Numbered from the stretch's first letter, positions 182 through 26,176 are shown. The stretch is 64,000 nucleotides of DNA from Candidatus Latescibacterota bacterium (GCA_965237675.1 OZ250150.1:5472001-5536000), one strand, 5' to 3'. Notes: generated by a model from the sequence alone, not told the origin. Made by a program: numbers and translations.

Positions 182-218
182 GTTTCAATCTGTCGGTCCA
201 GATGGGGAATTTCGTGCC
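182..218 (-). repeat. strongly degenerate solitary CRISPR-like repeat (family B)
   Basis: + strand gtttcaatctgtcggtccagatggggaatttc resembles consensus gtttcaatccttgttctgatggaagattc; about 60 nt upstream of the selenoprotein gene. Confidence 0.4.
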
Positions 219-864
219 ATAATCGACATGGGAACGAATAGATTCTCCCCCACCCCTAACGTCCCCTATTCCCTTGCCCTTTTTCTTGCTTCGCCCAAGA
301 AAAAGGGCGAAAAAGAAGGGCGCCACTCAAACGCCGCGGGGCTGCTTTTCCGCGAATCACGTCTGTGGAAGAAACGCGAAGTCGTTGGCCTGCGTCCTCC
401 GCTGGTATTCCTGGACCACGTTGCTGAACGGATTGGCGCGGAAAAGCCCCCACCTCACTACCGTCCGCCTGATAGCTCCTCAAGAGATACGGTTAGGTAG
501 TGCGGCACGTTTAAGGCCGCGAACAAAAACCCCCAACACCACCCAACGTGCGTGAGGTAGGCCGGCGATGACTACCGCGTGGATGTGCGGTTCTGCCGCG
601 CGTCGAAGGGGGCGGTTCGCGAACCGTCCCTACAAAGAGCAGCCATACGTGATATTGATGTCACCCGGTCCAGCTGACGGCTCTGTCTGAGGGGCCGAGG
701 GGAGAGGTCCCGGGATCGAGGGCATCCTGCCCTCGCCGCGACCCTCCTGTTGCGACCACGTCCCTGCGCAGACGTCGATTGATGTCGGTTCTGGCTGATA
801 GCTCTGTCTGCTGACAGCTGATCGTTGGCGGCCGGGTGGGGCGTGGCCTTCTTACGTCTCCCGT

Positions 865-1500
865 CTACCGTCTCACCTCTTTCAGAAAGTTCCTGCCGAG
901 GCGATGCGCTGTTGCCAGATTGCTGGCTCTCACCTCCGGCGCAGTCTGCACATCTGCCGCGCCTGACAGAATGACCACCTCGCAATGGGCAACGCCGGTT
1001 CCCGGCTGCAGGCGGTCGTTCTTGTAGATGCGCTTCATACTCTCGGCCAGGCCCGACTGTTCCAGAGCCTCTCCCGTGTTTCCGGCGGTGCAGAGGACAA
1101 GAGCCCTCGCGATCGACAGTCTCGGAAACGGATAGGTCTCGTCCGGAATTCCGTAATCATAGGCGTACCCGCAAACCCAGACGCGATCAAACCACCCCTT
1201 CAAATTGGCCGGGCAGTCGCTCCACCAGACGGGAAACACGAATCCCAGACCGTCGGCACGACAGATTTTTTCATGTTCCTCCCTGACATCAGCCGGAAGC
1301 GGACTGTGCGCCCGGTTGCCATGCACGTTTGTTTCGCGCCCATATTCGGCGAGCGACATGTCGGATCTGAACTCCATAGCGTACAAATCCCCAACCTCGC
1401 AGGTATGTCCTCCCTCTTCCAGACCCCGACATAGCTCCGCCAGTACAGCTCCCGTAAATGACTTCCTGGTCGGGTGCGCAAAGACGATATATGCGTGCAT
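865..1500 (-). CDS. NAD(P)H dehydrogenase (quinone), flavodoxin-like fold
   Basis: MHAYIVFAHP..SF, DLY, FPVWW..PANLKGWFDRV motifs; GGAGG RBS. Confidence 0.9.
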   Translation of the reverse strand: MHAYIVFAHPTRKSFTGAVLAELCRGLEEGGHTCEVGDLYAMEFRSDMSLAEYGRETNVHGNRAHSPLPADVREEHEKICRADGLGFVFPVWWSDCPANLKGWFDRVWVCGYAYDYGIPDETYPFPRLSIARALVLCTAGNTGEALEQSGLAESMKRIYKNDRLQPGTGVAHCEVVILSGAADVQTAPEVRASNLATAHRLGRNFLKEVRR

Positions 1501-1764
1501 GGGCGCCTCCAGGTTTATCTTCGACCAGCAATGGGGGCGGCTGACAGGGGTATTCCGCCATCCGACCGTGAGAACCCGGTCCGTCTCCAACTGTGGACCA
1601 TCGAGGGCCCGACTGCGGGGCAGTTTTGCCTCAATCGTGACTCTATATCCTCTGGACTCTCCAGTGTCATGCGATCAGTGCGGAAGACCATCTGTATTGT
1701 GTACCTCAACGGTGTACTAATGATGCGTTTCGATGCCATAATGAGTCATGTTCATTCTGTTTCA

Positions 1765-2139
1765 TCACGCCCGCAAATTATGAACCCAAACGAAGAGGCA
1801 CAGCACAATTGCGCCAATGGATATTCCATCTCGACTACCCTGCGAACAACGGATCCAGGCGTTTTCAAACCACGATGGAAACAATGCCATCCATATAGCC
1901 GATCCGACAATCAAAAAAGAGAATGGGTGGTACCGCCACGCGTCTTCGATATGTCCATGCGTCAGGCTAAGGCACGCTCGCGTCATCCCACACCCGGGAC
2001 ACGGAACATCTGTCGCAATAAAAAACACGCAAGGAATCGAAACAACCTCTGCCAGGGACACACCAGACACTGCGACGAAGATGCCCGCCGCACCCAACCC
2101 AATTAGAAAAAGACGCGCGATAGCCGCGTGGTTAAGCAT
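1765..2139 (-). CDS. DUF2752-family membrane protein
   Basis: PCPGCGMTRA motif, YHPFS, hydrophobic segments. Confidence 0.8.
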   Translation of the reverse strand: MLNHAAIARLFLIGLGAAGIFVAVSGVSLAEVVSIPCVFFIATDVPCPGCGMTRACLSLTHGHIEDAWRYHPFSFLIVGSAIWMALFPSWFENAWIRCSQGSRDGISIGAIVLCLFVWVHNLRA

Positions 2140-2146
2140 TGGACGT

Positions 2147-2518
2147 TTATCCGTAAAGTCTGTTAATCTGATACTGTTGAACGGCAAGGGAAGCGATACC
2201 AAGACCGAAGATCGCCAGCAGAACACAGATAACCGGTAGATCCGAATTGGATTCCAGATCATTGCCAGCCTGAACTTCATTGATACCGACTGCCATCTTA
2301 TACTCATAATAAATGCCGAAGATGCCGCAGGTGATAATGGATAGAAATAACCAGAGCCAGAAGGAATACTCATTTCTCCCAAGCCAGGCATTGAGCGTCA
2401 CCATCTGCTTATATTGCCAATAAAGCCCATAGATACCGAAGGTTACAAGAGACAGCAGGATTCCCGCCACTAAACTCCGCCTGGCCTGAAACTCTGGATA
2501 GGGATATCCATTAGGCAT
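2147..2518 (-). CDS. DUF4234-family membrane protein
   Basis: Repeated LSLVTFGIYGLYW / LSIITCGIFGIYY motifs, QYQIN C-terminus. Confidence 0.75.
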   Translation of the reverse strand: MPNGYPYPEFQARRSLVAGILLSLVTFGIYGLYWQYKQMVTLNAWLGRNEYSFWLWLFLSIITCGIFGIYYEYKMAVGINEVQAGNDLESNSDLPVICVLLAIFGLGIASLAVQQYQINRLYG

Positions 2519-2655
2519 GTAGACCTCCGTTTTGTTTTGACGGTACGAACCTGACCTGCAAGGAAATATCGACTTTAAACCCCACTGTTTTCACTGCAAG
2601 ATGCCGTCACGACGAGGCGGGACCTGTCCCGGTCGCCACGGCCTACTGTCACTAA

Positions 2656-2758
2656 CAGCCCGTTGAAAAAGTCCATCCGGGCTGCGGCCGGCTCTTGTGG
2701 CCGAATCATTGCGCTGCGCTCCCTCCCCGAATCCCCCGATTCGACTCGGTCGCGCGCC
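2656..2758. mobile_element. truncated MITE (family of 7573-7732)
   Basis: Starts CAGCCCGTTGAAAAAGTC, homologous to the 160-bp copies, ends just before the repeat at 2764. Confidence 0.75.
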
Positions 2759-2763
2759 GTGAG

Positions 2764-2799
2764 GTTTCAATCCACGTCTGATGGTTGATTCCTAACGGT
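2764..2799 (-). repeat. solitary CRISPR-like repeat (family B)
   Basis: gtttcaatccacgtctgatggttgattcctaacggt vs gtttcaatccttgttctgatggaagattcccgacggt (21544). Confidence 0.7.
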
Positions 2800-3312: not shown

Positions 3313-3341
3313 TTGACATATTCCGCCGAATGTCATATAAT
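3313..3341 (+). promoter_or_regulatory. consensus sigma70 promoter
   Basis: TTGACA-17 nt-TATAAT. Confidence 0.8.
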
Positions 3342-4287: not shown

Positions 4288-4596
4288 TTGAACACCTGTG
4301 ATCCCTGCACATTTTCCAGTACATACGTCATTACTCCACCCTCTTCGCGGAACCATTGCATCAAAACGCCCACATCGGTTCCCACACAAAGGAATTCCAC
4401 TCCCATATCCAAATATCGCTTCGCGCCTTTGGCTTCCCCGAATTCCGCTCGAGTCGGTATTTCAATCGCATATTTTCCCGCTACTCGGACGTTATCCCTG
4501 CCATAGCCGGCCTTGATAGGCCGGTAATTAAAGAATAATCCGACGGGTCGATTTGTATCAATCGGTTCCCCCCTTCATCCGCCAGTCCATCTTTTT

Positions 4597-4624
4597 GTAA
4601 GGGCGACCGGCCGGTCGCCCCTAC
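4597..4624. repeat. GTAG-family REP palindrome (relatives near 607, 5366, 5435, 36190, 38286, 39127, 39225, 42424, 43949)
   Basis: GTA(A/G)GGGCGACCGGCCGGTCGCCCCTAC and GTAGGGGCAACCCTTGTGGTTGCCC variants. Confidence 0.75.
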
Positions 4625-4639
4625 AGATCCCGTGCGTAG

Positions 4640-5230
4640 GTAGGAAGTCAGCGTTTCATCGGAAGATCCGCGCCACGATTTCGCTGCCGGGTGCGCGCTG
4701 TATCTCCTCCGGTGTCCCGCACTGTACGATACGGCCGCCTTGCAGCACCGCGATCCGGTCTGCGACCGCCAGGGCATCTGAGACGTCTCGCGTGGCATAA
4801 ATCACCGTGCGGTGCCGTCGGGGGAATGAATGGTCAGGGAGGGGTTGTCCGCGTGCTCGGATAAATCGCCGGGAGGTTCGCGGTGGGATCCGTCCAGCGC
4901 CATGTTCGGAAACGCATAGCGCCGGATCCACACCCCCCGCCATCTTTCCGACCGCCACTCGGGCGGGAAAGCGTCGACACCCCCGGAGAAACGCCAACCG
5001 CGGATTATGCCGGGACTGGTCTCGTCTTCGTACCCATCCGAACCGATATGCACGCCGCCCTGCCGGTCCGAGCGTTTGCCGACGTATCGCAGCAGCGTCG
5101 TCTTGCCGGCGCCAGCCTCCCCGACGATCGCGACAATCTCCCCCGACCGTACAAAAAGCGTCAGCCCGTCGAGGACGGGCGTCTTTGTGCCTTTGTATCG
5201 AAAGGTGATATTGTCGAGGAAAACGAACAT
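4640..5230 (-). pseudogene. degraded ABC transporter ATP-binding protein
   Basis: Walker A GEAGAGKTTLLR and ALAVADRIAVLQGGRIVQCGTPEEI lie in different frames; middle missing. Confidence 0.75.
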
Positions 5231-5266
5231 TTCGGATAATCCATCAGGGTGGATATAACTTTCAGT

Positions 5267-5285
5267 TGTGGCAATTACTGCGAAA
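5267..5285. promoter_or_regulatory. putative WYL operator (degenerate)
   Basis: TGTGGCAATTACTGCGAAA, variant of TGTCGCA-N5-TGCGACA. Confidence 0.5.
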
Positions 5286-5693
5286 AAGAATGCAGCGATC
5301 AGTCGACAGCGGTCAGCCAAAAAACGCAAAGGCGATCTATTCACGTCAGCGCATCTAGAGAATCTGTAGGGGCAACCCTTGTGGTTGGCCAGGTCGCGGG
5401 TGACTGCATGCAGCGGGCAGCGACATCGGGTCTTGTAGGGGCGACCGGCCGGTCGCCCTCGTTACGATCGAGCAGCGGTAAACAGTCAGCGTAACGCAAT
5501 CAGTCAAACAATCGAGGTCCGCGGGCCGCAACGCGAATCACTTCGATTTCTTCCAGGCGGAACAAGCGTTCACAGCAGGCCAAAATATGTAACACCATGA
5601 CGTTGAGGGAACGCATGGCGAGAGAATCAGTTGACAACGCGCATCAAATCTCGTAGTAATATTGCAGGTAATCAACCGAAACGGAGGCTTCCG

Positions 5694-6406: not shown

Positions 6407-6628
6407 ATGAACGCAGCAAGCGAATTGTCCGAACGGCAGGCCCGGCTTGAAGGCATCATTGAGCAAATGGACCGCCGCTTTGAGTCCATTGATCGCCGCC
6501 TGGATTCCATCGACCGCCGCCTTACGGGCATCGAGTCCAGCATGCGTCAGGGCTTTTTCTGGATCGTCGGCATTCAGATTACCACCCTCTTGACGCTTGG
6601 CGCGTTGATTCTCATCAAGCTCGGATAG
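6407..6628 (+). CDS. small coiled-coil, membrane-anchored protein
   Basis: Heptad SIDRR repeats plus C-terminal TM helix; GGAG RBS. Confidence 0.7.
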   Translation: MNAASELSERQARLEGIIEQMDRRFESIDRRLDSIDRRLTGIESSMRQGFFWIVGIQITTLLTLGALILIKLG

Positions 6629-6714
6629 CCACCCGCCTCCCGAAAGAACACCCAAGTGAACGCCATCGCCCACACAAACGCCGACATCACCAACCTGTCT
6701 AGCAGACAGCCAGA

Positions 6715-6734
6715 CCACCGAAGTGAGGGGAGAT
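6715..6734 (-). CRISPR. orphan half copy of the type I-C array repeat
   Basis: CCACCGAAGTGAGGGGAGAT, 20/20 identical to positions 18-37 of the array repeat. Confidence 0.85.
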
Positions 6735-6771
6735 GGGGACGGCTTTGCCGCGGTCCTTCACGACGCGGTAT

Positions 6772-6808
6772 GAGTCGGTCCTTGTTCTGATGGAAGATTC
6801 TCGACGTG
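6772..6808 (-). repeat. solitary CRISPR-like repeat (family B)
   Basis: gagtcggtccttgttctgatggaagattctcgacgtg. Confidence 0.85.
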
Positions 6809-6836
6809 TCCGCCTTCGATTGTTCATTTAAGCCTC

Positions 6837-7160
6837 TCATGGGATGCCTGCCGCTGCTCCAAACGCCTCTTGTGCTTCCCGTATCTTGACGTCCAACAAC
6901 GCCTCTTGTATCTCCTCTTGTATGTCCTGCTCCGCTTGCGTAAAGACATCGGCGGACCGCCGCCGGTAAACTTCCGTTCGGAATTCTTGGTTGTCCTCCC
7001 TGATCTTGTCTTGAAAAGCTTCCCGTACCGCCACTTCCATATCCGTCGCTATCGACGGGTTTTCTAGCACGGCATTCTTTACCGCCTGCTTCAGTATTTC
7101 TCGCGGTTCCCCTTTTTGTGCCCCAGCGTCCCACAACACCCGTACCGCCTGCTTCAGCAT
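6837..7160 (-). CDS. small helical hypothetical protein (cassette cargo)
   Basis: 107-aa ORF between two family-B repeats. Confidence 0.55.
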   Translation of the reverse strand: MLKQAVRVLWDAGAQKGEPREILKQAVKNAVLENPSIATDMEVAVREAFQDKIREDNQEFRTEVYRRRSADVFTQAEQDIQEEIQEALLDVKIREAQEAFGAAAGIP

Positions 7161-7198
7161 TTCTCACCTTGGATTGCTCATTTAAGCCCTCCCAGATG

Positions 7199-7235
7199 GT
7201 TTAAATCCTTGTTCTGATAGAAGATCTTCACCGGG
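7199..7235 (-). repeat. solitary CRISPR-like repeat (family B)
   Basis: gtttaaatccttgttctgatagaagatcttcaccggg. Confidence 0.85.
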
Positions 7236-7236
7236 A

Positions 7237-7424
7237 TTAGCGGCGGCACCTGGCGGTGCGTTTTTCAGCCGCTCGTTCGGCGTCGGCTTTGGCCCACAGG
7301 GCCAACTGGGACAAGGTAGGAACCGGCAGGCCGCCTTGTAGTCGGCAGGAGCAAACGGCGTCCCGTCGGGATGCCAGCCGCGGCCGAATATCTTCGTGTA
7401 CTTTTCTTTAGGTAGGGTAGGCAT
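7237..7424 (-). pseudogene. small WHxDGTPF-motif protein, probably frameshifted (paralog of 15018-15227)
   Basis: WHPDGTPFAPADYKAA; homologous tail LPVPTLSQLALWAKADAERAAE is in another frame ending TAA at 7239-7237. Confidence 0.6.
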
Positions 7425-7427
7425 AGA

Positions 7428-7464
7428 GATTCAATCCTTGTACTGATGGAAAATTCTCGCCGGG
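7428..7464 (-). repeat. solitary CRISPR-like repeat (family B)
   Basis: gattcaatccttgtactgatggaaaattctcgccggg. Confidence 0.85.
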
Positions 7465-7470
7465 TCTATC

Positions 7471-7560
7471 TCAATCGAACCAATCCCGGGGCGTAAAGTA
7501 TTTGATTCCAATAACCACCACAAGAATGACAGCAAGCAAGAGTATAAATCCCAAAATCAT
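7471..7560 (-). CDS. 29-aa single-TM microprotein (cassette cargo)
   Basis: MILGFILLLAVILVVVIGIKYFTPRDWFD; stop 6 nt before a repeat. Confidence 0.45.
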   Translation of the reverse strand: MILGFILLLAVILVVVIGIKYFTPRDWFD

Positions 7561-7572
7561 AGCGGCCCGTAT

Positions 7573-7732
7573 CAGCCCGTTGATAAAGTCCATCCGGGCT
7601 GCGTCCGGTCCTTGTGGCCGAAATACTGCGTTGCACTCCCTCTCCGAATCCCCGGATTCGACGCGGTCGCGCGCCTTGTCTTCGGCCACAATGACTCGGC
7701 CTCGCCTGCAGAGCGACTTTTTCAACGGACTG
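7573..7732. mobile_element. 160-bp MITE
   Basis: Terminal inverted repeats CAGCCCGTTGATAAAGTC / GACTTTTTCAACGGACTG; four copies in the window. Confidence 0.85.
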
Positions 7733-7749
7733 CTATATACTTGTTTTCC

Positions 7750-7785
7750 GTTTCAGTCCTTGTTCTGGGGAAGATTCCGAGCGGG
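7750..7785 (-). repeat. solitary CRISPR-like repeat (family B)
   Basis: gtttcagtccttgttctggggaagattccgagcggg. Confidence 0.8.
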
Positions 7786-7810
7786 ACTGTGGGTTGGGCC
7801 ACGGCCGCTT

Positions 7811-8362
7811 TTATTCATCTCCGCGGATCCTGGCCAGCGCCTCGCTCGCAGCATCTGCCATGAAATCCAGAGAGTCCTTAAGATTCTCGCGTATCCATTC
7901 GAGATACCTGACCGCCCGTTGCTCTCGAAACTCACCGAGTTGCCGGATGATCGTCTCCCCCAGACCGGTGCCCAAAGGGTATCGGTCTCTGGCCATGTGC
8001 TCGAAAACGCTCTCGAGCAGATTCAGCAGGTGTTGGCGAATTTCCTCCGAATCCGGTGAGGGTCTCCAGACGTAACGCGGGTTTTCCCAGGACACCCACT
8101 CGTCGGGTCGACCGGCTTGCACGCGCCGTTCCTGTTCCCAGCCGCCATGGCGCATCACCGGCCCGATCGGGATGCGATCGCGATCGGGCCGGCGATGTGG
8201 ATGGTTCGCACAATAGGTGTAGAAGGGATTCTCTATCGCGATGTCCCTGATCTCGCAATAGGGCGGTATGCTCTTGTCAGCGTGCCGCGACCAGTCGCGC
8301 TCGCCCTGGTTCGTTCGATTGAACCAACAGGTTCCGCAACAGTCGGATCCTCCGTTGGGCAT
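7811..8362 (-). CDS. hypothetical protein with Cys-rich N-terminus
   Basis: 183-aa ORF, CCGTCWFN..YCEIR..YCANH, GGAGG RBS. Confidence 0.75.
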   Translation of the reverse strand: MPNGGSDCCGTCWFNRTNQGERDWSRHADKSIPPYCEIRDIAIENPFYTYCANHPHRRPDRDRIPIGPVMRHGGWEQERRVQAGRPDEWVSWENPRYVWRPSPDSEEIRQHLLNLLESVFEHMARDRYPLGTGLGETIIRQLGEFREQRAVRYLEWIRENLKDSLDFMADAASEALARIRGDE

Positions 8363-8424
8363 CGCTCAGCCCTCCTCCCGGTTGAAACTCCGCAACATCT
8401 CCCACAACCCGTCATGTAGTAGCG

Positions 8425-8506
8425 CTCGCACCGTCACATCGTTCGGTCCAATTGGAATCCTCCGCCAGGCATAACATAAAGTCCATTTGTCGCAAGTATT
8501 GCGACA
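8425..8506 (-). promoter_or_regulatory. WYL-gene promoter remnant with operator TGTCGCAAGTATTGCGACA (8488-8506)
   Basis: Homologous to 37320-37396: operator, GGAGGATTCCAA RBS, decayed first codons. Confidence 0.7.
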
Positions 8507-8699
8507 ACATTAAAAAAGCTATCGGCTGTTAGCGTGCAGCCGTCAGCCAGAAACAGTGAGAAAAGGAACCGGTGTGAAGGTGGGGCGGACATTCCTGTCT
8601 GCCCTTATCATTGTCCTTCTGTCGCGATACAGACAGAAGCAAGGCTTGCGCCGTCCTCTTTCCAGTGGGGGAGACGGCGGCGAGTCGCGGCGTGCCCAG

Positions 8700-9260
8700 A
8701 CACAGGATTCTATCGGTCTGTGACGGGATCTCCGACCACGGTGATTACTACCGGGTCGGTACGTGGGAAGTGCTGGACTTCGCAGGCCGAGCACTGGCGT
8801 ACCTGACCGCCGCGCCTGGCAACCGTGGGCTGTCCGCATGCGGAGCAGAAGCCGTTGCGCACATGCCAATGAACGAGCGACCGCGCCTGGGCCAGGATGC
8901 CGGTTTCCCGACCCGCAAGCACGGTCCCGGCGTTGCGGCAATCCTCGAAACGCCAGTCCTGAGCGTCTGCTACCCGGCTGGCTGCCTCGGGGAAGGGAGA
9001 CAGGTCTACGGCGAAGTGCGCGACGCGTCCAATAGGCCGAGGAATATCGGCGCCGCGTCAGGCGTCAGGGTCCGGATACGCTGCGTGTTCAGCCAACCAA
9101 GCCGCGGAGGAAGGCGGTCGTGGATAAACTCCTCCAGGTTTCGGAAGGCCAGAAACCTGCTACCGGCGGCGCGTCCGGCGCGCTCAATCCAGGTTTCATC
9201 CCGACGTTCCCGTTCGCCACGGTCGAGGCGATTGCCGGAGAATGGATATGGAACTCTCAT
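8700..9260 (-). pseudogene. nudC: NAD(+) diphosphatase NudC remnant
   Basis: FSGNRLDR N-terminus; ARSLVHWH..FCSACG..RQCSAC..HFPRTDPVVIT; broken frames, Nudix box missing. Confidence 0.8.
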
Positions 9261-9359
9261 CGTTTGGGGTTACCGAAGGAGGAAAGCGGAAGGGAGGCGA
9301 GGGTCTATCCAGCCCATAGACGGCGCGAGTTCACGTCCAACTCCCGCGGCGCGACCGCT

Positions 9360-9995: not shown

Positions 9996-10262
9996 GGTTA
10001 TGCATGAACGATAGTCGGAATTTTCATTTTGTCCGGGTACCTATCCAATCCGACATGCACGTCACCCTGTCGATCCGAACGTCTGTCAACGAAACGCGGC
10101 AGCAAATGGTTGTGACCGCCAAACCCATTGCCGATGCTGACTTTACTCCAGGTCGGCAATGCCGCGTGCCGGGGCGTAGCAGGATTGCGCCGAGCGCCGT
10201 GTATCTGACTAAGATGGGGGCGAAGTTCCTGTGAGCCCCGGCCATGGCGTACCACTACCTGC

Positions 10263-13100: not shown

Positions 13101-13339
13101 ACGTTCAAATTACCCACCGTGTATTGTGTAGAAGATCAGTTACAAGGCCCAGACGAGCCGAGGATAGCGGTTCGAACTATGACCAGCCGGTACGTGTTGG
13201 CCAACGAGGACGTCGGCAAACAGCTATTCGGCACGTCGACACACGCCTCCGCGTCGATAAGAATATACAGAGGAAAACGCGGGATTCAATCCCGACCTGG
13301 AATATTCACTGTTGTTGAACCGAATAATAGTTGAATCTA

Positions 13340-14975
13340 GGAGTCTGCGCCGCAGGAAAATTCATTTCAATGGACAGGTAAAGGTAGGTATAATGGGTCG
13401 TGTAGTTCGGAAATGTCAAGCAGTAAAGAGGTTGTGAGTTGTGTCAACGGAGGGAGCTATCGATGCCGACGACCTTTCGTGCGTATCACCCGGACCAGAT
13501 ATTGCTGTTGGCGCCTGATCTTCGGGAGTGGGTGCCTGAAGGGCATCTGTCGCACCAGGTGAGCGATCTGGTGGATTCACTGGATCTGGGGTCGTTCTAC
13601 GCGCCGTATGAAGGCGATGGGCGTCGCAACGCGCCTTATGAGCCATCGATGATGTTGAAGGTATTGATATATGGGTACGCGACGGGTGTGTATTCGTCTC
13701 GTGGGATCGCGCGGAAGCTGGAGGAGGACGTGGCGTTTCGTATGTTGGCGGCAGGCAATTTTCCACAACACCGGACGATCTGCGAGTTTCGTCGTCGTCA
13801 CCTAAAAGATTTCGGGCGTTTGTTCGTGGAGGTGGTTCGTGTGGCGCGGGAGATGGGTCTGGTACGTTTCGGGACGCTATCTTTGGACGGCACGAAGGTA
13901 CGAGCGAAGGCGAGCAAGCGCAAGGCCATGAGTTACGGGCGGATGTTGAAGGAACAGGCTCGTCTGGAGAAAGAGATCGGGGCGTTGCTGGCGGGGGCTG
14001 TGTCGATTGATGCCGAGGAGGACGCGCGTTACGGCGCGGATGTTCGTGGCGACGAGTTACCGGTCGAGTTGCAGCGCAGGCAGGTTCGTCTGGCGGCGAT
14101 CAGGGCGGCTCGGGAGCGTCTAAAAGCATCGCAACGAGCCGTCGACGATGCGCGCGGTCGCAAGCCCGGTCAGAAGTGCAACCCGAAGGGCGGGCGGCCA
14201 TACAAAAGGGCCTATGGCGAGCCCGACCCGAAGGCGCAGAGCAACTTCACGGACCCCCAGTCTCGGATCATGAAGACGAGCGCGGAGGGGTTCCAGCAGT
14301 GCTACAACGCCCAGACGGTGGTGGACGCCGAGCGTCAGATCATCGTGGCTGCGCATCTGGGGTCAGCGGCCACCGATCAGGGCTTTATGCTCCCTTTGCT
14401 GGATGGGGTGCAAGAGACATTCGGGGTCAAGCCGGCGGTGGTTCTGGCGGACGCGGGATACTGCAACGAGGAGGACCTGGCCACGCTTGAGGAACGTGGC
14501 ATCGACGGTCACGTGGCGCTGGGGCGGGAGGGCAGGGAAGGGGTGGACGTCGATTCGGAGACGCTTCCAGCGACGCATCGCATGGGCGAAAAACTGGCGA
14601 GCCCGGAAGGTCGGGGCCTGTATGCGATGCGCAAGTGGCTCTCCGAGGCGCCGAACGGATGGATCAAGGAGATACTGGGCTTCCGGCGCTTCAGCTTCCG
14701 GGGTCTGGAAAAGGTGCGGGGCGAGTGGGACCTGGTCTGCCTGGCGTTGAACGCCAAGCGGATGGCAGCGTTGACGATGTGTTGAGGCATGAGTTCGGGC
14801 GTCCTGTGCTTGTGGACTCGACATACGGGAAGCCACGATCCCTAATATCTCGTCCTCAACACGCCTGACTGCCACGATGCCCCCGCCCGAAACTCATCAT
14901 CCCACTCCCAACATAACACCGAACCCAACACAGACACATCTCGCCCTTTGCAAAAACTCCTGCGGCGCAGACTCC
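13340..14975 (+). mobile_element. IS1182-family insertion sequence
   Basis: 18-bp perfect TIR GGAGTCTGCGCCGCAGGA (13340-13357 / 14958-14975). Confidence 0.9.
13463..14785 (+). CDS. IS1182-family transposase
   Basis: G..PYEPSMMLKVLIYGYATGVYSSR, LDGTK, NFTDPQSRIMK, LADAGY, GFRRFSFRGL. Confidence 0.95.
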   Translation: MPTTFRAYHPDQILLLAPDLREWVPEGHLSHQVSDLVDSLDLGSFYAPYEGDGRRNAPYEPSMMLKVLIYGYATGVYSSRGIARKLEEDVAFRMLAAGNFPQHRTICEFRRRHLKDFGRLFVEVVRVAREMGLVRFGTLSLDGTKVRAKASKRKAMSYGRMLKEQARLEKEIGALLAGAVSIDAEEDARYGADVRGDELPVELQRRQVRLAAIRAARERLKASQRAVDDARGRKPGQKCNPKGGRPYKRAYGEPDPKAQSNFTDPQSRIMKTSAEGFQQCYNAQTVVDAERQIIVAAHLGSAATDQGFMLPLLDGVQETFGVKPAVVLADAGYCNEEDLATLEERGIDGHVALGREGREGVDVDSETLPATHRMGEKLASPEGRGLYAMRKWLSEAPNGWIKEILGFRRFSFRGLEKVRGEWDLVCLALNAKRMAALTMC

Positions 14976-15014
14976 CAGGGCAATATGAGCATTCACTGGG
15001 AACCCTACTTAAGC

Positions 15015-15051
15015 GTTTCAATCCTTGTTCTGGTGGAAGACGTTCGACGAT
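15015..15051 (-). repeat. solitary CRISPR-like repeat (family B)
   Basis: gtttcaatccttgttctggtggaagacgttcgacgat. Confidence 0.85.
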
Positions 15052-15227
15052 TCGGCCGCACGCTCAGCGTCGGCACGGGCCCACAGGGCCAATTTGGACA
15101 GGGTGGGGACAGGCAGGCAGGCCGCCTTGTAGTCAGCAGGTGAGAACGGCGTGCCGTCCTCGTGCCAGGCGGGGCCGTTAAAAGTGTCTGCCATCTTGTT
15201 GGGTTTGTTGGGCGTGTCGATAGTCAT
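15018..15227 (-). CDS. small WHxDGTPF-motif protein whose 3' end reads into the repeat
   Basis: WHEDGTPFSPADYKAACLPVPTLSKLALWARADAERAAE; GGAG RBS. Confidence 0.6.
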   Translation of the reverse strand: MTIDTPNKPNKMADTFNGPAWHEDGTPFSPADYKAACLPVPTLSKLALWARADAERAAESSNVFHQNKD

Positions 15228-15338
15228 CGTTCAGGTCTCCCATATAGTCCCACCGGATATCCCCAACGTGGTCCCCCGGCAGGTTTTCGCGAAAAGCCTC
15301 AATGGACCGCTCGCCACCCGGCAACTTCTGGGCGTCGG

Positions 15339-15375
15339 GTTTCGATCCTTGTTCTGGTGGATCTACATTTGCGGG
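15339..15375 (-). repeat. solitary CRISPR-like repeat (family B)
   Basis: gtttcgatccttgttctggtggatctacatttgcggg. Confidence 0.75.
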
Positions 15376-15548
15376 CGCTCAGGACCGCCACCACTGTCCC
15401 GATCTGGACAATAACCGCCTTGCAGCACCGCGACCCGGTCCGCGACCGCCAGGGCGTCGCAGACGTCTCGCGCGGCCCAAATCATCGTGCGGCACCGCAG
15501 TTTTGTACGTCGTGCGAAGAGATCGCGCGGATAAATATAGATTCGTGG

Positions 15549-15567
15549 TGTCGCAATTACTGCGACA
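15549..15567. promoter_or_regulatory. putative WYL operator
   Basis: TGTCGCAATTACTGCGACA palindrome. Confidence 0.65.
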
Positions 15568-15899
15568 AAAAGCAGCTTTCAGCAATCAGCCGACAGCAGT
15601 CAGCCAATAACGAAAAGGCGATCTATTCACGTCAGCGCATTTGGAGTATCTCCAGGGGCATCCCTTTCGGTTGCCCAAGTCGCGTCGAGTAACAGGCCAC
15701 AGGAGGCAATTGGGGGTTCCGTCGGGAGACCCCGCGGGGCGTCATCGTTTTTGTCGATCAGAGGGCATCAGTCGAGATAAGGAAGCGTCGTGTAACCGTA
15801 CGCCCAAATCGCCAACCGGCGGCGCTCGATGATTTTGGCTCTCTTCTCTCGAACCTCCTCATCGAGTAAATAAACGCAGGCAGACACGGGAACTCTATA

Positions 15900-15936
15900 G
15901 AGTAAATCGTTGTTCTGATGGAAGTTCTCATTGGGC
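15900..15936 (-). repeat. solitary CRISPR-like repeat (family B, degenerate)
   Basis: gagtaaatcgttgttctgatggaagttctc. Confidence 0.7.
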
Positions 15937-16174
15937 GAAGAGCCCTTTTGGGACTCGCGCCAGCGTCGGAACTCGTACTGCTTGGTGAAGACCAGCACTT
16001 CGGTTGCCGCCAGCAGGCCGTGCAGGGTCGCATAGAGGCACTCGGAAAAGCGGATCCGAAGGACGCTATGCTACTGATTTTGGCGACTATGTTAAAAACA
16101 ACGCGATCGAATTTCACCCGAGGCAAAAATGTCCAGAGGCAGTACCGGAATTTTTCGCAAACCCCTTGCTGCGT

Positions 16175-17929
16175 CTACGATGTTCCCCGGTCGCTCCGAT
16201 TCGTACTAAGCAGCCCTCGCAGCCTGTGATGCAGACGGTCGCGACGGGCTTCGTAGAACGCGTTGAACCCTGTGATTTCCGTTGGGATCTCACCCAAGTC
16301 ATTTCGAGAGACGAAATCGCTCGCCGCTTCGGAATCATAGGTATTAGCGATCCACTCGTGCGGCAACCTATCGCGCTTGCTTTCGTTGGCCTCCCCGGTG
16401 AGCAACTGCAGATTGGGGAGGCGGTTGACACGGTCGAGGTACTCCGGGATGTGGTCTTCAGCCACTCCGACCTGGCGTAGACGCCCACGCGTGAACCGGC
16501 TCTTCGGAAACACGTGATCGATATGGAACCTGTTGCTTTGCACATCCACGAAGGGGTATAAGACGGACAGTAGCGCGAACGTACGGTCCTTCGACTCCAC
16601 GAGATCCTCTATTTCTTCTTCCTCGAATGCCAGGCTCTTGCCGCGCACCCGCATCCCAGCTTCCAGTTTCGCCGACGGGAATGCCTCTGCGCCATGTGTA
16701 TCGATCAGGCTCCTGAGCGAGGTGAGCAGGGTGTCCAGACCGCTGCCCCAAATCCCTCGCTTGAGCAGTGATCGCAATAGCCAATCTCGGATATCATCTC
16801 GATCCTGGCGGTACAACGATTGAGACAAGAATCCCGTGGGTGTATCCTTGCAATACAGGTAGTGAGCAATGGGCAGAACTGCGTAGTTTGCGCTTAGACT
16901 GGCCTGGGAAAAACCAAACCTTGCCACCAATTCCACGGCTGTGCGTACTGCGCGCGTTATCGGGTCCCAGTTCTCTTCAAGGAGCTTCATGTTGTTCCGA
17001 TTGAAATTGGTCGCCCTGAAACGAACGTTCGCGACCCCTGCAAGCATAAGGCCTGCTTTGAGCAGGAAGTCCTGAGTGAACGCGAAGCCCGTCCCGATGC
17101 GGTTTATTTCGTCCACCGTGCCGTGTATTGCCTCGCGGGCATCCAGTTTCTCCCACTGTGCGGTGGCCATACTCATCAGCATGTCTGAATAGCTCAGCGT
17201 CGTACCACCACTGTTGGTACGGATAAAGATGTCAAGAACCTTGTCTATATTTTGGTCAGGTTCCTCGTAGTGCGCGATAACCGGATCCGTGTGCACAACC
17301 TTTTGTAGCTTCCCTAGGACGTTGCCTGGGCGGCGTTCATTGCCAAGTTGTCTGTTCACGAGAATTTCGTTGAGATCCTGCCACTCCTCAACCTGTAGGA
17401 TCTCGCCAACGGGGTACCAGCAGTGCGTTTCGTCCCGCCGTTCGGCCTCTTCGCTGGTCAGAAATCGAAAATCGTACTGCATGTTTTGCTCGTTCTCCTC
17501 CGCGTCCGCGAGAAGATTCAGGTATAGTTTCCGCTTTGGAAATGCGTCTGGGTTGTTCCACCATAGACGCGGCAGTTTGTAGGCGTAGGTACCCCGTAGC
17601 CCGATGTTCAAACCCGTTAGTCGTTGCTGGCCGTCGAGCACTGCGGTAACTTCATCTCGGGTGAGGGCTCCTATTGGATCGCAATGGGGGTTATCTCTCT
17701 CGTGATAGTTAAGCATTAAGTCGTAGAACTTGTACTTAGCGATGCTCTCTCGTTCGACGATCCAGAACAGGAACGACCCAATCGGGTACCCGCGCATCAG
17801 GCTGTCGAAGAGACATTGGATCTGTTCAGGCCGCCACACGAATTCCCGCTGAATCGCAGGAAGCACATACTGCCTACCTTCAATAGCCCCGAGGGCCTTG
17901 CTGATCGTGATAGGAGTCTGGAATCCCAT
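16175..17929 (-). CDS. GmrSD-like DUF262 + C-terminal HNH (DUF1524-like) restriction endonuclease
   Basis: LPAIQREFVW, LFDSLMRGYPIG, LDGQQRLT, FIRTNSGG, HIDHVFPK..NLQLL..N..K. Confidence 0.9.
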   Translation of the reverse strand: MGFQTPITISKALGAIEGRQYVLPAIQREFVWRPEQIQCLFDSLMRGYPIGSFLFWIVERESIAKYKFYDLMLNYHERDNPHCDPIGALTRDEVTAVLDGQQRLTGLNIGLRGTYAYKLPRLWWNNPDAFPKRKLYLNLLADAEENEQNMQYDFRFLTSEEAERRDETHCWYPVGEILQVEEWQDLNEILVNRQLGNERRPGNVLGKLQKVVHTDPVIAHYEEPDQNIDKVLDIFIRTNSGGTTLSYSDMLMSMATAQWEKLDAREAIHGTVDEINRIGTGFAFTQDFLLKAGLMLAGVANVRFRATNFNRNNMKLLEENWDPITRAVRTAVELVARFGFSQASLSANYAVLPIAHYLYCKDTPTGFLSQSLYRQDRDDIRDWLLRSLLKRGIWGSGLDTLLTSLRSLIDTHGAEAFPSAKLEAGMRVRGKSLAFEEEEIEDLVESKDRTFALLSVLYPFVDVQSNRFHIDHVFPKSRFTRGRLRQVGVAEDHIPEYLDRVNRLPNLQLLTGEANESKRDRLPHEWIANTYDSEAASDFVSRNDLGEIPTEITGFNAFYEARRDRLHHRLRGLLSTNRSDRGTS

Positions 17930-18641
17930 CAGTGAAAACCTCCTTCGAATCGGGTTTACAGCGGCGACAACGGAAAGTGCTAATACACGCACCACCGGTG
18001 GGTACGGGTGCGCCGTCTGGATTCTATGCCATGGACTTTGCGGCTAGGGCCAAAAGCCGGTACCGTGAGCGTTAATCTCCTTCTGGGCCTTGGCGGAGAC
18101 TCTGCGTCGCTTGTACGCGTTTCCTGGTAGCCTCGTAGACCTTCATTCGAAGAAAGCAAGGGGTGCCGAGATTGCTATGGTGCCCGATGTGCCACTGCCT
18201 GCGCCTATGCAGGAACCACATGAATGGATTGACTGTGACCGCCGAGCATTTCTGGGGGTATTCGCACACTCAGGGTTCGCGGTCCAAGTGTATGTTGCCG
18301 CGCAACAGGTGTGGGCTCAACATGCCGATGGACGCGTACGCAGTCGCTTGCACGGTACTGGGTACAGCGGTTGGTGGTACTTGTGGTCCGTCAATTCAGG
18401 GTCAAGATTGATGTTCCAGCGTGCCAGTCCAAAGATGCGCCCGAATAGGCTTTTGAGCCACCGGGTACAGAACGTGGTGCGATGCGAGAGTTGGTGCACC
18501 GCATCTATTGCACAAGTACCTCTCGGTAGATCCGCGACCGTTTCCGGTCCAACTTGACCGAGGTATAGGAGACAAATTCATTCGACTCGACAATATGACA
18601 ACGTGCAGAGCAAACGTCGCCTGATCGTCGGGTTCGTTCAC

Positions 18642-18670
18642 GTTTCGATTCCGGTTCCTGTGGAAAATGC
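18642..18670 (-). repeat. degenerate solitary CRISPR-like repeat (family B)
   Basis: gtttcgattccggttcctgtggaaaatgc, 20/29 matches to the consensus by eye. Confidence 0.45.
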
Positions 18671-18727
18671 ACTGCGGATTGTCGTGCGTACACAACGCAC
18701 CTCGGCCATTCGGTCTCTTGGCGCTGC

Positions 18728-19642
18728 TTAAGCAACCTCGAACAGGTAGCGCACCCACTTGTTTGCGACGTCGGAGATGCCATCCACGTCAATTACGAAT
18801 TCCTGCCCTGGGCCTTCCGAGGTGACATGGATCCACGGCGCGGCGCGCCGCCGCATTTTGACTTTACGCTTAAGGCGCCTGCAACCGTCGGCTGGCCAGA
18901 ACCATTCAGGCAGTCTCCAGTGTGAGCATCGGGATGATGCTCCCTTTTCAACTTCCTCCGGCTCGGTCAAGATGATACGGCAGTCTTCGTTCTGAAATAC
19001 GCCGCCTCCGGGTGCGTCGGTTCCAGCGATACTGAGCTTCGGAGTCGAAACGTAGACCGTGTTGTTCATCGGCCTCCGAGGATTGTCGCCCGGTTCCCGG
19101 AATGATCCGTTCAGATGTGGGTGGTCCGATAGCCACGGATACTTGCCCAGAGCGCGGTCGTAGTCCGCAACTGTATGAAGTGCCAAAACTTCATGTACCT
19201 GAAGCCAACCGAAAATCAGATGGACTCTCGGTGCGGTTCTGACGAAACACCAACCGCCGCTGCCATCTTCCTCGACCCGCCGGAACGTTCCGAAGAACAG
19301 GAAAAGGTCACCCTGACAGACGCCCTGATTGGCCAGGTGGGTTTGAGATTCATCTACCAGTCCGAATGCTGGCCGCCATCCGGATTGCCGTGGGATCGCT
19401 TCGTCTCGAAGGTCTGGATCCAGGTGGCACCAACAGTCTTGCCTAACTTTACTCAGGCACTCCACAATCGGCGCGAGCGAGCGACCAACCCACAGAACAT
19501 CGCTAAACCGTTTCGAAGATTGAGGATAACGCTGGGGCGTCGGAATAGGGAGGGAGAGGATTCTCCCGTCTGGGAAAATCGGGCTATGGCTCTTTCCAGT
19601 TTTCGAGTCGAATCCCTTGCGGCTGAGCACGATTCTCTTCAT
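18728..19642 (-). CDS. Nucleotide modification associated domain 3 (Nmad3) protein
   Basis: MKRIVLSRKGFDS..SPIFPDG..SLPIP, CHLDPDL, GDLFLFFG, GPGQEFV. Confidence 0.8.
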   Translation of the reverse strand: MKRIVLSRKGFDSKTGKSHSPIFPDGRILSLPIPTPQRYPQSSKRFSDVLWVGRSLAPIVECLSKVRQDCWCHLDPDLRDEAIPRQSGWRPAFGLVDESQTHLANQGVCQGDLFLFFGTFRRVEEDGSGGWCFVRTAPRVHLIFGWLQVHEVLALHTVADYDRALGKYPWLSDHPHLNGSFREPGDNPRRPMNNTVYVSTPKLSIAGTDAPGGGVFQNEDCRIILTEPEEVEKGASSRCSHWRLPEWFWPADGCRRLKRKVKMRRRAAPWIHVTSEGPGQEFVIDVDGISDVANKWVRYLFEVA

Positions 19643-19645
19643 CGG

Positions 19646-19682
19646 TAAAGTCCTCGTTGTTCTGATGGAAAATTCCCTGTCT
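19646..19682 (-). repeat. solitary CRISPR-like repeat (family B), 3' end remodelled into the Nmad3 RBS
   Basis: Core ttgttctgatggaaaattc (19657-19675); minus strand reads TTCCATCAGAACAACGAGGACTTTACCG-ATG. Confidence 0.7.
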
Positions 19683-19785
19683 ACAATCTCCTCAAGTCCG
19701 GCGCCTAATGGGCCGGCCGGCACGATTCGACTCGAACCCACAACGTGCATCCGGACAAAGCGGCGGCTTGTCGCGTGAGGTGGAT

Positions 19786-20424
19786 CTAACGCATCTCCAA
19801 CCGTTCGCCGCGCCGAAGCAGCCCGAGGCTCTCGGCGATGCGCCGCTCCCGAGTTGCCTCGCGTTTGGCCGTCCCTATCCACGTGATGAACTGGCGCTGG
19901 TACGAAGGCGCCAGGGTGTTCCAAAAGGCTTGAGCATTGGGATCGGCTTCCAAGGCGGCTGAGAACGCGTGCGCCATCTCGAACCGAGCCGCCTCAGGCT
20001 TCCAACCCCAGGTTCCGCTACGCTTCGCTTCGTCGATCAGGCGCTGGCCGGCGGCCGTCATCTTGCCGGACGCGCGCAGCCGGTCGACGCGCTTACGGTT
20101 CGTTTCCGACCACCGGCTCCCCGGCCTTCTCGGCGTGAAGCGGTGCATGTAGCGCTCGTCGTCGATCCGCTGCTTCGTCCCGTCGATCCAGCCAAAACAC
20201 AGCGCTTCCTCGACCGCGTCGTTGTACGTCGCTGTCGGTTTGTCCACGTGTTTCTTGTAGAACACCACCCAGACCGCGTCGACGCGATCGTGGTTCGCGC
20301 ACAGCCAGCGTCGCCAACAGGACCGGCTTCTCGGGGTGAAGCGCCGCTCCGGCGTGGACCTCGCCGCCTGCCTCGACCTGCCGGGAAGGGAAACATCGAC
20401 TGCTTTCTTGTCCGAATCAGGCAT
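19786..20424 (-). CDS. YdeI/OmpD-associated family protein
   Basis: AVEEALCFGWIDG, FTPRRPGSRWSETN, AKREATRERRI. Confidence 0.9.
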   Translation of the reverse strand: MPDSDKKAVDVSLPGRSRQAARSTPERRFTPRSRSCWRRWLCANHDRVDAVWVVFYKKHVDKPTATYNDAVEEALCFGWIDGTKQRIDDERYMHRFTPRRPGSRWSETNRKRVDRLRASGKMTAAGQRLIDEAKRSGTWGWKPEAARFEMAHAFSAALEADPNAQAFWNTLAPSYQRQFITWIGTAKREATRERRIAESLGLLRRGERLEMR

Positions 20425-20941
20425 GAGGATCTCCGTTATTCCCATTTGGAAGCGCAACGCTACAGGCACGCGAAGGCCAGCGCGGTAAAGCCACGACCGA
20501 TCGACAGCTGTATGGCGCCGGGATGCCCCACGTATCTGGGCGTCGCTTCAACTCGCTCAGCAACCCCACTGGGCACCAATTCCACCTCTTTGAACTCGAA
20601 CAGTTACACATTGCTGTTGAAGCGTACCGCCATGTCCGGACGACCCGGGTGGCGCAGAAACCCTTTTCACGTCAGCTTACGGAGCCCGTGGACGACATTG
20701 AACGCCGACGGTATATCCGGTAACTGGTCTACCCGCTCCCCAGGGCGTGCCCGGGGAAAATCGCCCGAACCTGCGAGAATCGGTTCAGTAGTGGCACCGC
20801 TGATCGGCGCTGCCCATATCGGTATTAACTATTGGGGCTTGAAACAGATGGACAAAGCTGCAAACATCCGTAGCCTCCACGTCGATGCGTCTCGAAAAAA
20901 CGTAAGCCCCTGCTCACTGGTGAAGACATGGCCTGCCGTGG

Positions 20942-21190
20942 TTAGAAAATGCCTCCGCCGAGCGCAAGGCGTATGATGCCAAAAAACAGCGCCACAATGC
21001 AGCATACTAAGCCCGCGATACCGCAGCTCTTGGAGTTGCTGCCCGCCGTAACCAGCGCGATGCCGCAGACGATGACGCCCAAGCCTGCAAAAGGGATATT
21101 GAGCCAGTTTAGCGAGCCGAGACAAGGAAAAAAGCCCACCACCATTCCAACAATAGCCAGAATTCCCCAAAGCAAACTAAGCACCCGCAT
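20942..21190 (-). CDS. small membrane protein
   Basis: 82 aa, three hydrophobic segments, GGAGG RBS. Confidence 0.75.
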   Translation of the reverse strand: MRVLSLLWGILAIVGMVVGFFPCLGSLNWLNIPFAGLGVIVCGIALVTAGSNSKSCGIAGLVCCIVALFFGIIRLALGGGIF

Positions 21191-21194
21191 GATG

Positions 21195-21512
21195 TTACCT
21201 CCTTTTGTGCATCCGGCGCATCATGAAAACGGCGACCACTAGCTGATTGGCGAGCAAAGCTCCAAGAATGGCGACCGACCCTCGATTGTAGATAAGAGCT
21301 GCCGAGAAGTCGCCACGTGCAGTGGCCGCGAATGCGCGCGTCATGCCGCACAAAGCGCAGGTTTCCCCGTTGCGATGCGGCACCTTAAGAGCCTCGCTCG
21401 TGGAAAAAAGCGTTTCCTCCGGCACAAGGTAGGGCAAGATCAATATGAAAAGCAGCACAGTTGACGCCACCAACCACGCCGCCAAAAGGGTCCTCCTGGC
21501 ATAGCGGTCCAT
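21195..21512 (-). CDS. DUF2752-like membrane protein
   Basis: CALCGMTRAF motif. Confidence 0.7.
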   Translation of the reverse strand: MDRYARRTLLAAWLVASTVLLFILILPYLVPEETLFSTSEALKVPHRNGETCALCGMTRAFAATARGDFSAALIYNRGSVAILGALLANQLVVAVFMMRRMHKRR

Positions 21513-21543
21513 TGCGTCGGCTCCGTCGTGAAATACGAGGATT

Positions 21544-21580
21544 GTTTCAATCCTTGTTCTGATGGAAGATTCCCGACGGT
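21544..21580 (-). repeat. solitary CRISPR-like repeat (family B, best-conserved copy)
   Basis: Minus strand ACCGTCGGGAATCTTCCATCAGAACAAGGATTGAAAC, 37 nt, ATTGAAAC end. Confidence 0.9.
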
Positions 21581-26170: not shown

Positions 26171-26176
26171 CCTACT

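Follow-up and report, generated by a model that had tools for sequence, protein, structure and literature searches.

This report concerns a 64,000-nucleotide stretch of DNA from a Candidatus Latescibacterota bacterium (GCA_965237675.1, OZ250150.1:5472001-5536000), hereafter called the window, in which a 36-37-nt motif recurs as solitary copies on one side of a type I-C CRISPR array. The motif is the repeat of a type I-B CRISPR system, and the genome has exchanged that system for the resident I-C one. Many of the repeats belong to tandem units, each composed of a repeat and a small gene of a family that we call F0, which recur across the genus and had been missed in the initial annotation of the window. 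What this genome retains is mainly a decaying remnant. We consider it probable, with some reserve, that it represents the remains of an I-B array zone in which the repeats have acted as recombination junctions and some of them have been reused as leaders of F0 genes.

A profile of the motif derived from 8 copies was used to search the entire genome (5,614,256 bases, 3 contigs). It resulted in 89 rows at E<=100, only 9 of which had E<=0.01. All 9 are plus-strand hits of the profile within 6772-21580 of the window (starts at 6772, 7199, 7428, 7750, 15015, 15339, 15900, 19654 and 21544) and none lies elsewhere in the genome, the top match outside the window having E=0.49. Repeat finding in the window placed 9 motif copies in one family (D6), and for the 15-nt core of the motif, at 2 mismatches or fewer, the window contains 6 occurrences versus 0.13 expected from shuffles. 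These searches confirmed that the motif is far above chance and that the observation made in the initial annotation is real. Of the 10 solid solitary copies listed there, 9 were recovered by the profile at E<=0.01. The tenth, at 2764, reached only E=28, although on inspection by eye it reads as a degenerate copy that has lost 1 nt. Neither of the two weaker copies, at 182 and 18642, was retrieved at E<=100, but the one at 18642 does fall into family D6, with 74% identity. The copies are listed below with the strand on which the repeat reads; the E values are those of the profile, and G008 designates the closest relative compared.

2764-2798, minus strand: probable degenerate repeat copy with a 1-nt deletion (E 28), abutting a partial copy (2652-2761) of a miniature inverted-repeat transposable element (MITE)
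6772-6808, minus strand: solitary I-B-type repeat, 3' end degenerate (E 2.7e-07)
7199-7235, minus strand: solitary I-B-type repeat (E 3.2e-07)
7428-7464, minus strand: solitary I-B-type repeat, one end of a strain deletion joint from 7447 to 7769 (E 3.9e-08)
7750-7785, minus strand: solitary I-B-type repeat with a 1-nt deletion, the other end of the same joint (E 9.9e-05)
15015-15051, minus strand: solitary I-B-type repeat holding the TGA stop codon of an F0 gene, with a G008 homology block ending 1 nt outside (E 3.3e-07)
15339-15375, minus strand: solitary I-B-type repeat, diverged in the half that comes first in the RNA (E 2.1e-04)
15900-15934, minus strand: solitary I-B-type repeat, degenerate (E 7e-05)
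18642-18678, minus strand: possible very degenerate copy, about 50 nt past the stop codon of an Nmad3 gene (74% identity, no profile hit)
19646-19680, minus strand: solitary I-B-type repeat, 3' end degenerate (E 0.01, profile hit at 19654-19677)
21544-21580, minus strand: best-preserved solitary I-B-type repeat, with both strain and species homology blocks ending 1 nt outside (E 9.9e-09)

Every copy reads on the minus strand, in the orientation of the I-C array and the cas operon, as had been claimed, and most copies lie between minus-strand open reading frames (ORFs) or at their ends, in agreement with the gene-boundary position proposed for them. The flanked genes had been described as unrelated, which does not hold for all of them, since 7182-7424 and 15018-15227 are paralogues, and no DUF2867 match, as reported for one fragment, was found among the window ORFs scanned. 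The starts of the copies are spaced by 229 to 7265 nt, without the regular 30-40-nt unique spacers of a CRISPR array. Only the pair 6715/6772, composed of half an I-C repeat and an I-B copy, stands one spacer length apart and shows the geometry of two repeats around a spacer that is found in regulatory mini-arrays. The 37-nt piece between them (6735-6771), a pseudo-spacer, has no other match longer than 15 nt in the genome, and no target was found for it. We also considered the motif as a coding C-terminus, given a recurrent reading frame (...IFHQNKD followed by a stop codon), and rejected this as a general explanation, the upstream ORFs in that frame having mostly 26-41 codons.

The identity of the repeat was established by comparison with related genomes. 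A pattern search in 41 genomes, comprising the one under study (G000) and 40 relatives, found the motif in 16. Regular arrays of the motif, with a period of approximately 74 nt, are present in G003 (38 matches), G006 (37), G010 (69), G012 (83), G024 (63) and G030 (14). The array of G010 adjoins genes for Cas4, Cas2, Cas3, Cas5, Cas7 (DevR), a large subunit and Cas6b. Its Cas5 matches TIGR02593 above the cut-off and TIGR01895, the I-B Cas5 model, below it; the large subunit has a weak match to CXXC_CXXC, and a 224-aa protein matches both Cas6b_N and Cas6b_C (Pfam) above their cut-offs. G003 carries the same Cas6b, and there too the array adjoins Cas6b, Cas7, Cas5 and Cas3, which makes it a canonical array of this repeat served by cas genes. 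The genes on the right flank, coding for a WYL regulator, YbjQ and a metallo-beta-lactamase, are common to the window and the I-B loci, as is a 945-aa Ig-like protein on the other side. Because the flanking genes match on both sides, the I-B locus of the congeners is the same chromosomal locus as the window, and the motif is a type I-B repeat since it forms regular arrays beside Cas6b and other cas genes at that locus.

In contrast to those congeners, G000 was found to hold no Cas6b, Cas6, Cas8b, Cas7b or Cas5b (tblastn; PF17262 and PF01881; genome completeness 99.93%), and thus no cognate processing or effector genes for the I-B repeat. As Cas6 was not found, the repeats are not processed there now as CRISPR RNA (crRNA) repeats. 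The claim that the motif is a repeat of the Cas6 type and does not belong to the local I-C array is therefore borne out by the arrays of about 74-nt period beside Cas6b in G010 and G003, and the reported absence of cas6 from the window extends to the whole of G000. The reported absence of an integron integrase holds as well, the tyrosine recombinase family PF00589 being matched at 5 places in the genome, none of them in the window and the nearest about 103 kb away. The resident I-C system consists of the following features.

6715-6734, minus strand: half I-C repeat of 20 nt (family D5), separated from the I-B copy at 6772 by one spacer length (37 nt)
23003-25672, minus strand: resident I-C CRISPR array with 37 hairpin-forming 37-nt repeats (repeat finding and folding)
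25853-35368, minus strand: I-C cas operon with cas2, cas1, cas4, cas7 (27976-28932), cas8c, cas5d, an insertion sequence (IS) of the Mutator family (31904-33193) and cas3

The I-C family models matched were PF05107 for Cas7 and TIGR01863 for Cas8c. The Cas1 proteins of the I-B and I-C systems are only about 28% identical, and the two repeats share only their last 10 nt, GGATTGAAAC. Upon folding, the I-C repeat forms a strong hairpin (-19.1 kcal/mol, z=-3.7); the I-B motif is unstructured (-3.2 kcal/mol, z=+1.15), no better than shuffles. The Mutator-family transposase gene, located between cas5d and cas3, may split the transcription of the I-C operon.

F0 is the largest gene cluster in these regions. 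Its members have 58-70 aa and share the invariant residues W-H-x-D-G-x-P...A-D-Y...P-V-P. The two window members are as follows.

15018-15227, minus strand: F0 family gene, intact, 69 aa, with its TGA stop codon inside the repeat at 15015 (E 2.3e-28)
7182-7424, minus strand: F0 paralogue, frameshifted, with its ATG 3 nt past the repeat at 7428 and its frame running into the repeat at 7199

Judging from its sequence evolution, F0 is a real gene: its dN/dS between species is 0.07-0.22, with synonymous sites near saturation. The protein is small, acidic and hydrophilic, and its AlphaFold2 model comprises a hairpin and a long helix (pLDDT 83.4). F0 gave no hits in Pfam, NCBIfam, PHROGs or PADLOC and no usable match in the ESM Atlas, and a Foldseek comparison of the model with the PDB returned nothing at E<=0.001. 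A word-based protein search with F0 produced 2 hits, and an exhaustive profile search 45 representatives at E<=0.001, mostly of 55-95 aa; a few giant proteins among these match on a short repeated motif only and are regarded as spurious. Five matches in IMG/VR were also rejected as short motif matches within large unrelated proteins. Three of the 13 F0 sequences retrieved run on into the translated repeat (...SSNVFHQNKD, ...ESSIRTR...). Within the genus, 13 of 15 genomes carry F0, G000 among them; beyond it, F0 was detected in a single genome from another genus of the same family and in none of the 19 genomes of the sister family. Among the 14 congeners, 12 have F0 and 3 (G003, G006 and G010) have Cas6b.

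An alignment of 11 F0 units with their flanks revealed a common plan, in which a repeat ending in ...GGATTGAAAC is followed by a few nucleotides, the start codon, the gene, its stop codon, 0-45 nt and the next repeat. The start codon typically lies 2-7 nt past the end of the repeat. In this alignment a recognisable repeat directly upstream is missing only from the window copy at 15018 and from its counterpart in G008, and one directly downstream only from the unit of G010. G002 had no profile hits, yet degenerate repeats are recognisable on both sides of its F0 gene. By tblastn, one locus of G011 (L011) contains 5 F0 copies or fragments, each within one repeat-to-repeat interval of 217-246 nt; further copies or fragments were found in G010 (3), G001 (3 in L013 and 1 in L014) and G014 (3 in L009). 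Over all loci, 24 of 70 solitary or array-end repeats are followed, after 0-7 nt, by the start codon of an ORF with 40 codons or more (hand count from the table), a number that includes many paralogues and hence copies that are not independent.

The repeat upstream of F0 appears to be constrained. In five F0 units from four relatives without detected Cas6b, the upstream 37-nt repeat differs between species at 0.11-0.34 of its sites and the synonymous sites of F0 at 0.42-0.80, which makes the repeat 2-5 times better conserved. The 40 nt beyond the upstream repeat are unrelated between species (about 0.41-0.51 differences). Over 59 solitary copies, the best-kept part is the middle of the repeat (86-96%). 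These values point to selection on the repeat that would be independent of Cas6b, because copying among the repeats of one genome could not account for their likeness between species. According to the profile scores, the solitary copies of G010, which carries cas6b, are no better kept than those of genomes without cas6b. A scan for promoters and terminators over 6500-26300 found 10 promoter-like sites (6.4 +/- 2.6 in shuffles) and 23 terminator-like ones (20.5 +/- 5.2), and hence no signal in that interval.

The same layout was found in the congeners. Solitary copies 0.2 to several kb apart, with one orientation per locus, occur in G001 (7), G008 (9), G009 (5) and G014 (6), as well as in G010, where 7 copies trail the regular array, and in G011 (9 and 4). 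In G003, 4 solitary copies trail three array fragments that are parted by IS pieces and genes. Altogether, solitary copies trail arrays or former array sites in at least 7 congeners. I-C repeats, solitary or in short runs, are interspersed among the solitary I-B copies of relatives, and the two types abut at 8-37 nt in G001, G008 and G011, as they do at 6715/6772 in the window. The gene order of the island differs widely between genomes. Small-ORF calls and gene clusters of the relatives' loci served as guides only, the codon-score gene finder having put cas7 on the wrong strand. A locus of G011 (L011:11080-12766) contains two perfect I-C repeats around 1.6 kb with a 380-aa ORF, which looks like a recent gene-sized spacer for the other repeat type.

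Some of the variation between strains and species ends in or next to the repeats. Among the edges of the blocks shared with G008, which are 86-97% identical, those at 15014 and 21543 lie a single nucleotide outside a repeat, and another lies 11 nt from the repeat at 7750. A strain form present in runs X3 and X6 skips from 7447 to 7769; both ends lie 19 nt into a repeat, and exactly one unit is lost. One metagenome contig joins 13329 to 21543 via 116 other letters and is devoid of the block 13330-21542, including the IS and the segment 15015-21542. For the proposal that cassettes are gained or lost exactly at repeats, the skip and the two G008 edges at 15014 and 21543 are exact instances, but the edges overall show no significant enrichment: in a permutation test on all distinct block edges, 3 of 39 lay within 25 nt of a repeat versus 1.38 expected (P=0.157).

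Several other joints were noted. One from 15038 to 21538 (side of 24 nt) was not resolvable from the contigs, and nothing is drawn from it. A minor X1 contig (depth 8.9) runs from 23240, in the middle of an I-C array repeat, to 6707, a few nucleotides short of the half I-C repeat at 6715, the two parts being linked by 23 other letters; the contig may reflect a circle, a duplication junction or an artefact of assembly, and nothing is drawn from it either. Contigs from X3 and X6 are without 171 nt of 22781-22953, between the DUF4432 gene and the first I-C repeat, and at the matching place G008 has an I-B repeat.

We propose the following course of events. The trailer side of the old I-B array would have become a variable island, in which insertions and duplications spread the repeats apart, and the I-B cas genes would later have been replaced by those of the I-C system at the same locus. 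The surviving dispersed direct repeats could then provide short patches of homology at which ordinary recombination deletes, duplicates and moves blocks, and recombination between repeats may thereby produce an integron-like, modular look without an integrase. The repeats directly upstream of F0 may have been reused as a 5' leader carrying AAGGA, or as a site for some RNA-binding factor. Such reuse is suggested because these copies are conserved above the synonymous rate even in genomes without cas6b, and the F0 units would be more than debris because their upstream repeat appears to be under selection and is fixed in position relative to the start codon.

A number of points weigh against this proposal. 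Most window copies are visibly degenerate by eye, which speaks against constraint on the repeat, and one orthologous copy, again by eye, is less similar in the window and G008 than the block around it. The units used for the constraint measure are only five, from four relatives, and they are not independent. The distance of about 11 nt between AAGGA and the ATG is long for Shine-Dalgarno spacing. As to the junctions, the global edge test is not significant, many block edges are far from any repeat, and the exact coincidences were spotted after the fact. The strain data are de Bruijn metagenome contigs, which break or mis-join at repeats. Homologous exchange on partly diverged 37-nt repeats is inefficient, and any mechanism operating on repeats would be expected to leave junctions at the outer edges of shared ones. 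We infer recombination between repeats from the positions of the junctions, and the leader role from position and conservation only.

A broader reading, which we regard as possible but doubtful, gives the CRISPR repeat a second job. Tandem repeat-minigene arrays, with the construction of CRISPR arrays but coding for proteins, each unit comprising the 37-nt I-B repeat and a gene of about 180 nt for a 58-aa protein, would form a CRISPR-derived, integrase-free cassette platform in this genus, with the repeat as a processing site and/or translation leader and as a junction for swapping genes between strains.

It is unlikely, in our view, that the repeats are live RNA signals. Transcription of the island would be joint with that of the array or similar to it, and Cas6b would cut at solitary repeats and free single-gene mRNAs with an 8-nt AUUGAAAC tag a few nucleotides before the start codon; in a variant covered by the same judgement, cutting would separate F0 from its AAGGA ribosome-binding site and thereby restrict its translation to cells lacking Cas6b, in the manner of a CreTA-type safeguard. 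Such signals would account for the placement of the F0 start codon 2-7 nt past the repeat in many genomes, the co-orientation of the island genes with the repeats, the unstructured nature of the repeat, as expected of a Cas6b substrate, its constraint above the synonymous rate, and the presence of F0 units in the Cas6b-carrying G003, G006 and G010. However, genomes in which Cas6b was not detected, this one included, have also retained F0 and its repeats under purifying selection, as the counts for the 14 congeners illustrate, and the presence of cas6b in G010 has not left its solitary copies better preserved. The cutting of a polycistron by Cas6, as suggested in the initial annotation, is impossible in this genome, where neither Cas6 nor Cas6b was found.

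Plain debris is a rather improbable explanation. An old array would have decayed while unrelated insertions piled up, leaving repeats with no present role in recombination or expression. The degeneracy of most window copies, the lack of significance of the global edge test, the break-up of the G003 arrays by IS elements and the frequency of gene fragments (ABC ATPase pieces at 4481-5344 and 15376-15700, F46 in G008) would all fit. What debris leaves unexplained is the conservation of the F0-upstream repeat relative to synonymous sites, the placement of the start codon kept across species and the exact repeat-to-repeat strain deletion.

We judge it very unlikely that the units are anti-CRISPR modules, combining an RNA anti-CRISPR (the solitary repeat) with a protein anti-CRISPR and left behind by mobile elements that recombined into the array. 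In phages, solitary units mimicking host repeats adjoin acr genes, one of them 11 nt downstream in the same transcript, and such units have been suggested to enable viral integration into arrays (Camara-Wilpert et al. 2023, PMC10651486). F0, which is small, acidic and without known family or PDB fold match, would not be out of place in such a module. Yet the units studied here are chromosomal rather than located on phages or plasmids, occupy the same locus genus-wide in tandem and under purifying selection in their hosts, and persist in hosts without the I-B system that they would inhibit. No integrase or phage gene lies nearby, and the IMG/VR matches of F0 are short motifs in large unrelated proteins.

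The least credible alternative, giant spacers, in which Cas1-Cas2 (with Cas4) would have inserted gene-sized DNA and duplicated the repeat each time, could explain why each block is bounded by direct repeats in array orientation and why I-B/I-C repeat junctions at a spacer-like 8-37 nt recur in the window, G001, G008 and G011, but Cas1-Cas2 is well known to measure out the length of a spacer, the two repeats that bound a block are not identical to each other, the F0 units are paralogues spread by duplication rather than independent captures, and the MITE and the IS in the intervals insert on their own. The earlier suggestion of capture by the adaptation machinery found no support.

The contents of the intervals between the repeats are mixed, comprising F0 genes, a MITE, an IS, gene fragments and defence or accessory genes. 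The gene-cassette picture of the initial annotation fails for several of the intervals, which are a MITE, an IS or gene fragments. Besides the F0 genes, the main features are the following.

7567-7735, no strand assigned: MITE-like repeat of 166-170 nt, occupying the greater part of 7467-7749 (54 blastn rows genome-wide, with 93-96% identity among the matches listed; high strain depth)
7811-8362, minus strand: 183-aa Cys-rich protein of no known family (cluster F11)
13337-14978, plus strand: IS element with a DDE_Tnp_1 transposase (13439-14785) and 21-nt terminal inverted repeats (multi-copy depth)
16175-17995, minus strand: GmrSD-like nuclease of 606 aa, matching the defence candidate HEC-05 (E 1.4e-223)
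18728-19642, minus strand: Nmad3-domain protein, its ATG 2 nt past the degenerate repeat 19646-19680
19786-20469, minus strand: YdeI/OmdA-domain protein
21195-21512, minus strand: DUF2752 protein, its first ATG 31 nt past the repeat at 21544
21662-22744, minus strand: DUF4432 protein

Because the MITE-like repeat fills most of 7467-7749, an 84-aa ORF called in that interval is probably spurious. The MITE-like element is also present at 2652-2761 (partial), 37526-37696 and 41663-41833, and its internal palindrome varies between strain contigs. A repeat lies within about 60 nt downstream of F11 in 4 of the 6 genomes holding this cluster, and G008 has DUF4432 twice, once with an I-B-type repeat on both sides. 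The GmrSD-like gene was the sole match in the PHROGs scan. Fragments of an ABC ATPase gene occur in several copies in the window, including the two mentioned above, and a palindromic operator-like motif (core of the TGTCGCAAT-TA-TTGCGACA type; families D15 and D18) is located upstream of ABC ATPase copies or fragments, at 5253-5287, 8474-8508 and 15535-15569.

Three published systems and integrons invite comparison. Standalone CRISPR repeat-like elements and mini-arrays with cargo genes have been described in CRISPR-cas loci (Shmakov et al. 2023, PMC10120712). As in the window, these are partly degraded repeats outside arrays and inside CRISPR-cas neighbourhoods, and the zones between them are described as gene-shuffling hotspots rich in toxin-antitoxin and defence genes, which resemble the island. 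They differ in being mostly pairs of repeats around a promoter-targeting spacer of normal length, between cas genes, whereas the copies studied here are 0.2-7 kb apart on the trailer side, belong to a subtype no longer encoded and are in many cases fused to the start of a small gene. The Racr/acr solitary repeat units (PMC10651486) likewise place a single CRISPR-like repeat within a few nucleotides of a small protein gene, but they reside on phages and plasmids, whereas the units described here are chromosomal, tandem and conserved in the genus, and were not found in viral contigs. In Clostridioides difficile, type I toxin-antitoxin modules lie beside I-B arrays (Maikova et al. 2018, PMC5961336), another case of genes for proteins of about 50 aa regularly adjoining arrays of this type; those modules code for small membrane toxins and antisense RNAs and have no flanking repeats, whereas F0 is hydrophilic, tandem and flanked by repeats. 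With integron cassette arrays the island shares co-oriented, mostly unrelated genes parted by a recurring short site and a content that varies between strains. Unlike integrons, it has no integrase in the window, its site is unstructured with no imperfect palindrome of the attC type, and many of its intervals are fragments or mobile elements. In the literature, by titles and abstract openings and with supplementary tables aside, we found no account of protein-coding genes regularly bordered by CRISPR repeats, of tandem minigenes with such a repeat at the head of each, or of a lost subtype whose repeats are retained in that way, which is no proof of their absence.

Stray repeats outside arrays are known mainly as regulatory mini-arrays or phage decoys. 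What stands out here is that repeats of a lost CRISPR subtype outlive their system, that some copies appear to be under selection immediately upstream of a conserved small gene even where no Cas6b was detected, and that some strain-level gene gain and loss ends in repeats. If this is true, CRISPR arrays could seed new cis-elements for genes as well as recombination hotspots that shape defence islands, and the locus offers a concrete case, in an uncultured lineage, in which to ask whether CRISPR-associated RNases or the array transcript are reused in gene expression.

Two further observations concern the neighbourhood of the locus. A conserved protein of 180-230 aa without known family (cluster F14) is encoded just past cas6b in I-B loci (G010, L016:9782-10339), has homologues in G001, G003, G009 and G011, and is kept beside the WYL regulator where all cas genes have been lost; a relative with 56% identity is located elsewhere in G000 (C1:744794-745204). 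Finally, segments 36230-38129 and 40372-42266 of the window match one same stretch of G008 at 85-93%, suggesting a tandem duplication about 4 kb apart, which would span two WYL/WCX/HTH regulators (36373-37482 and 40354-41388).

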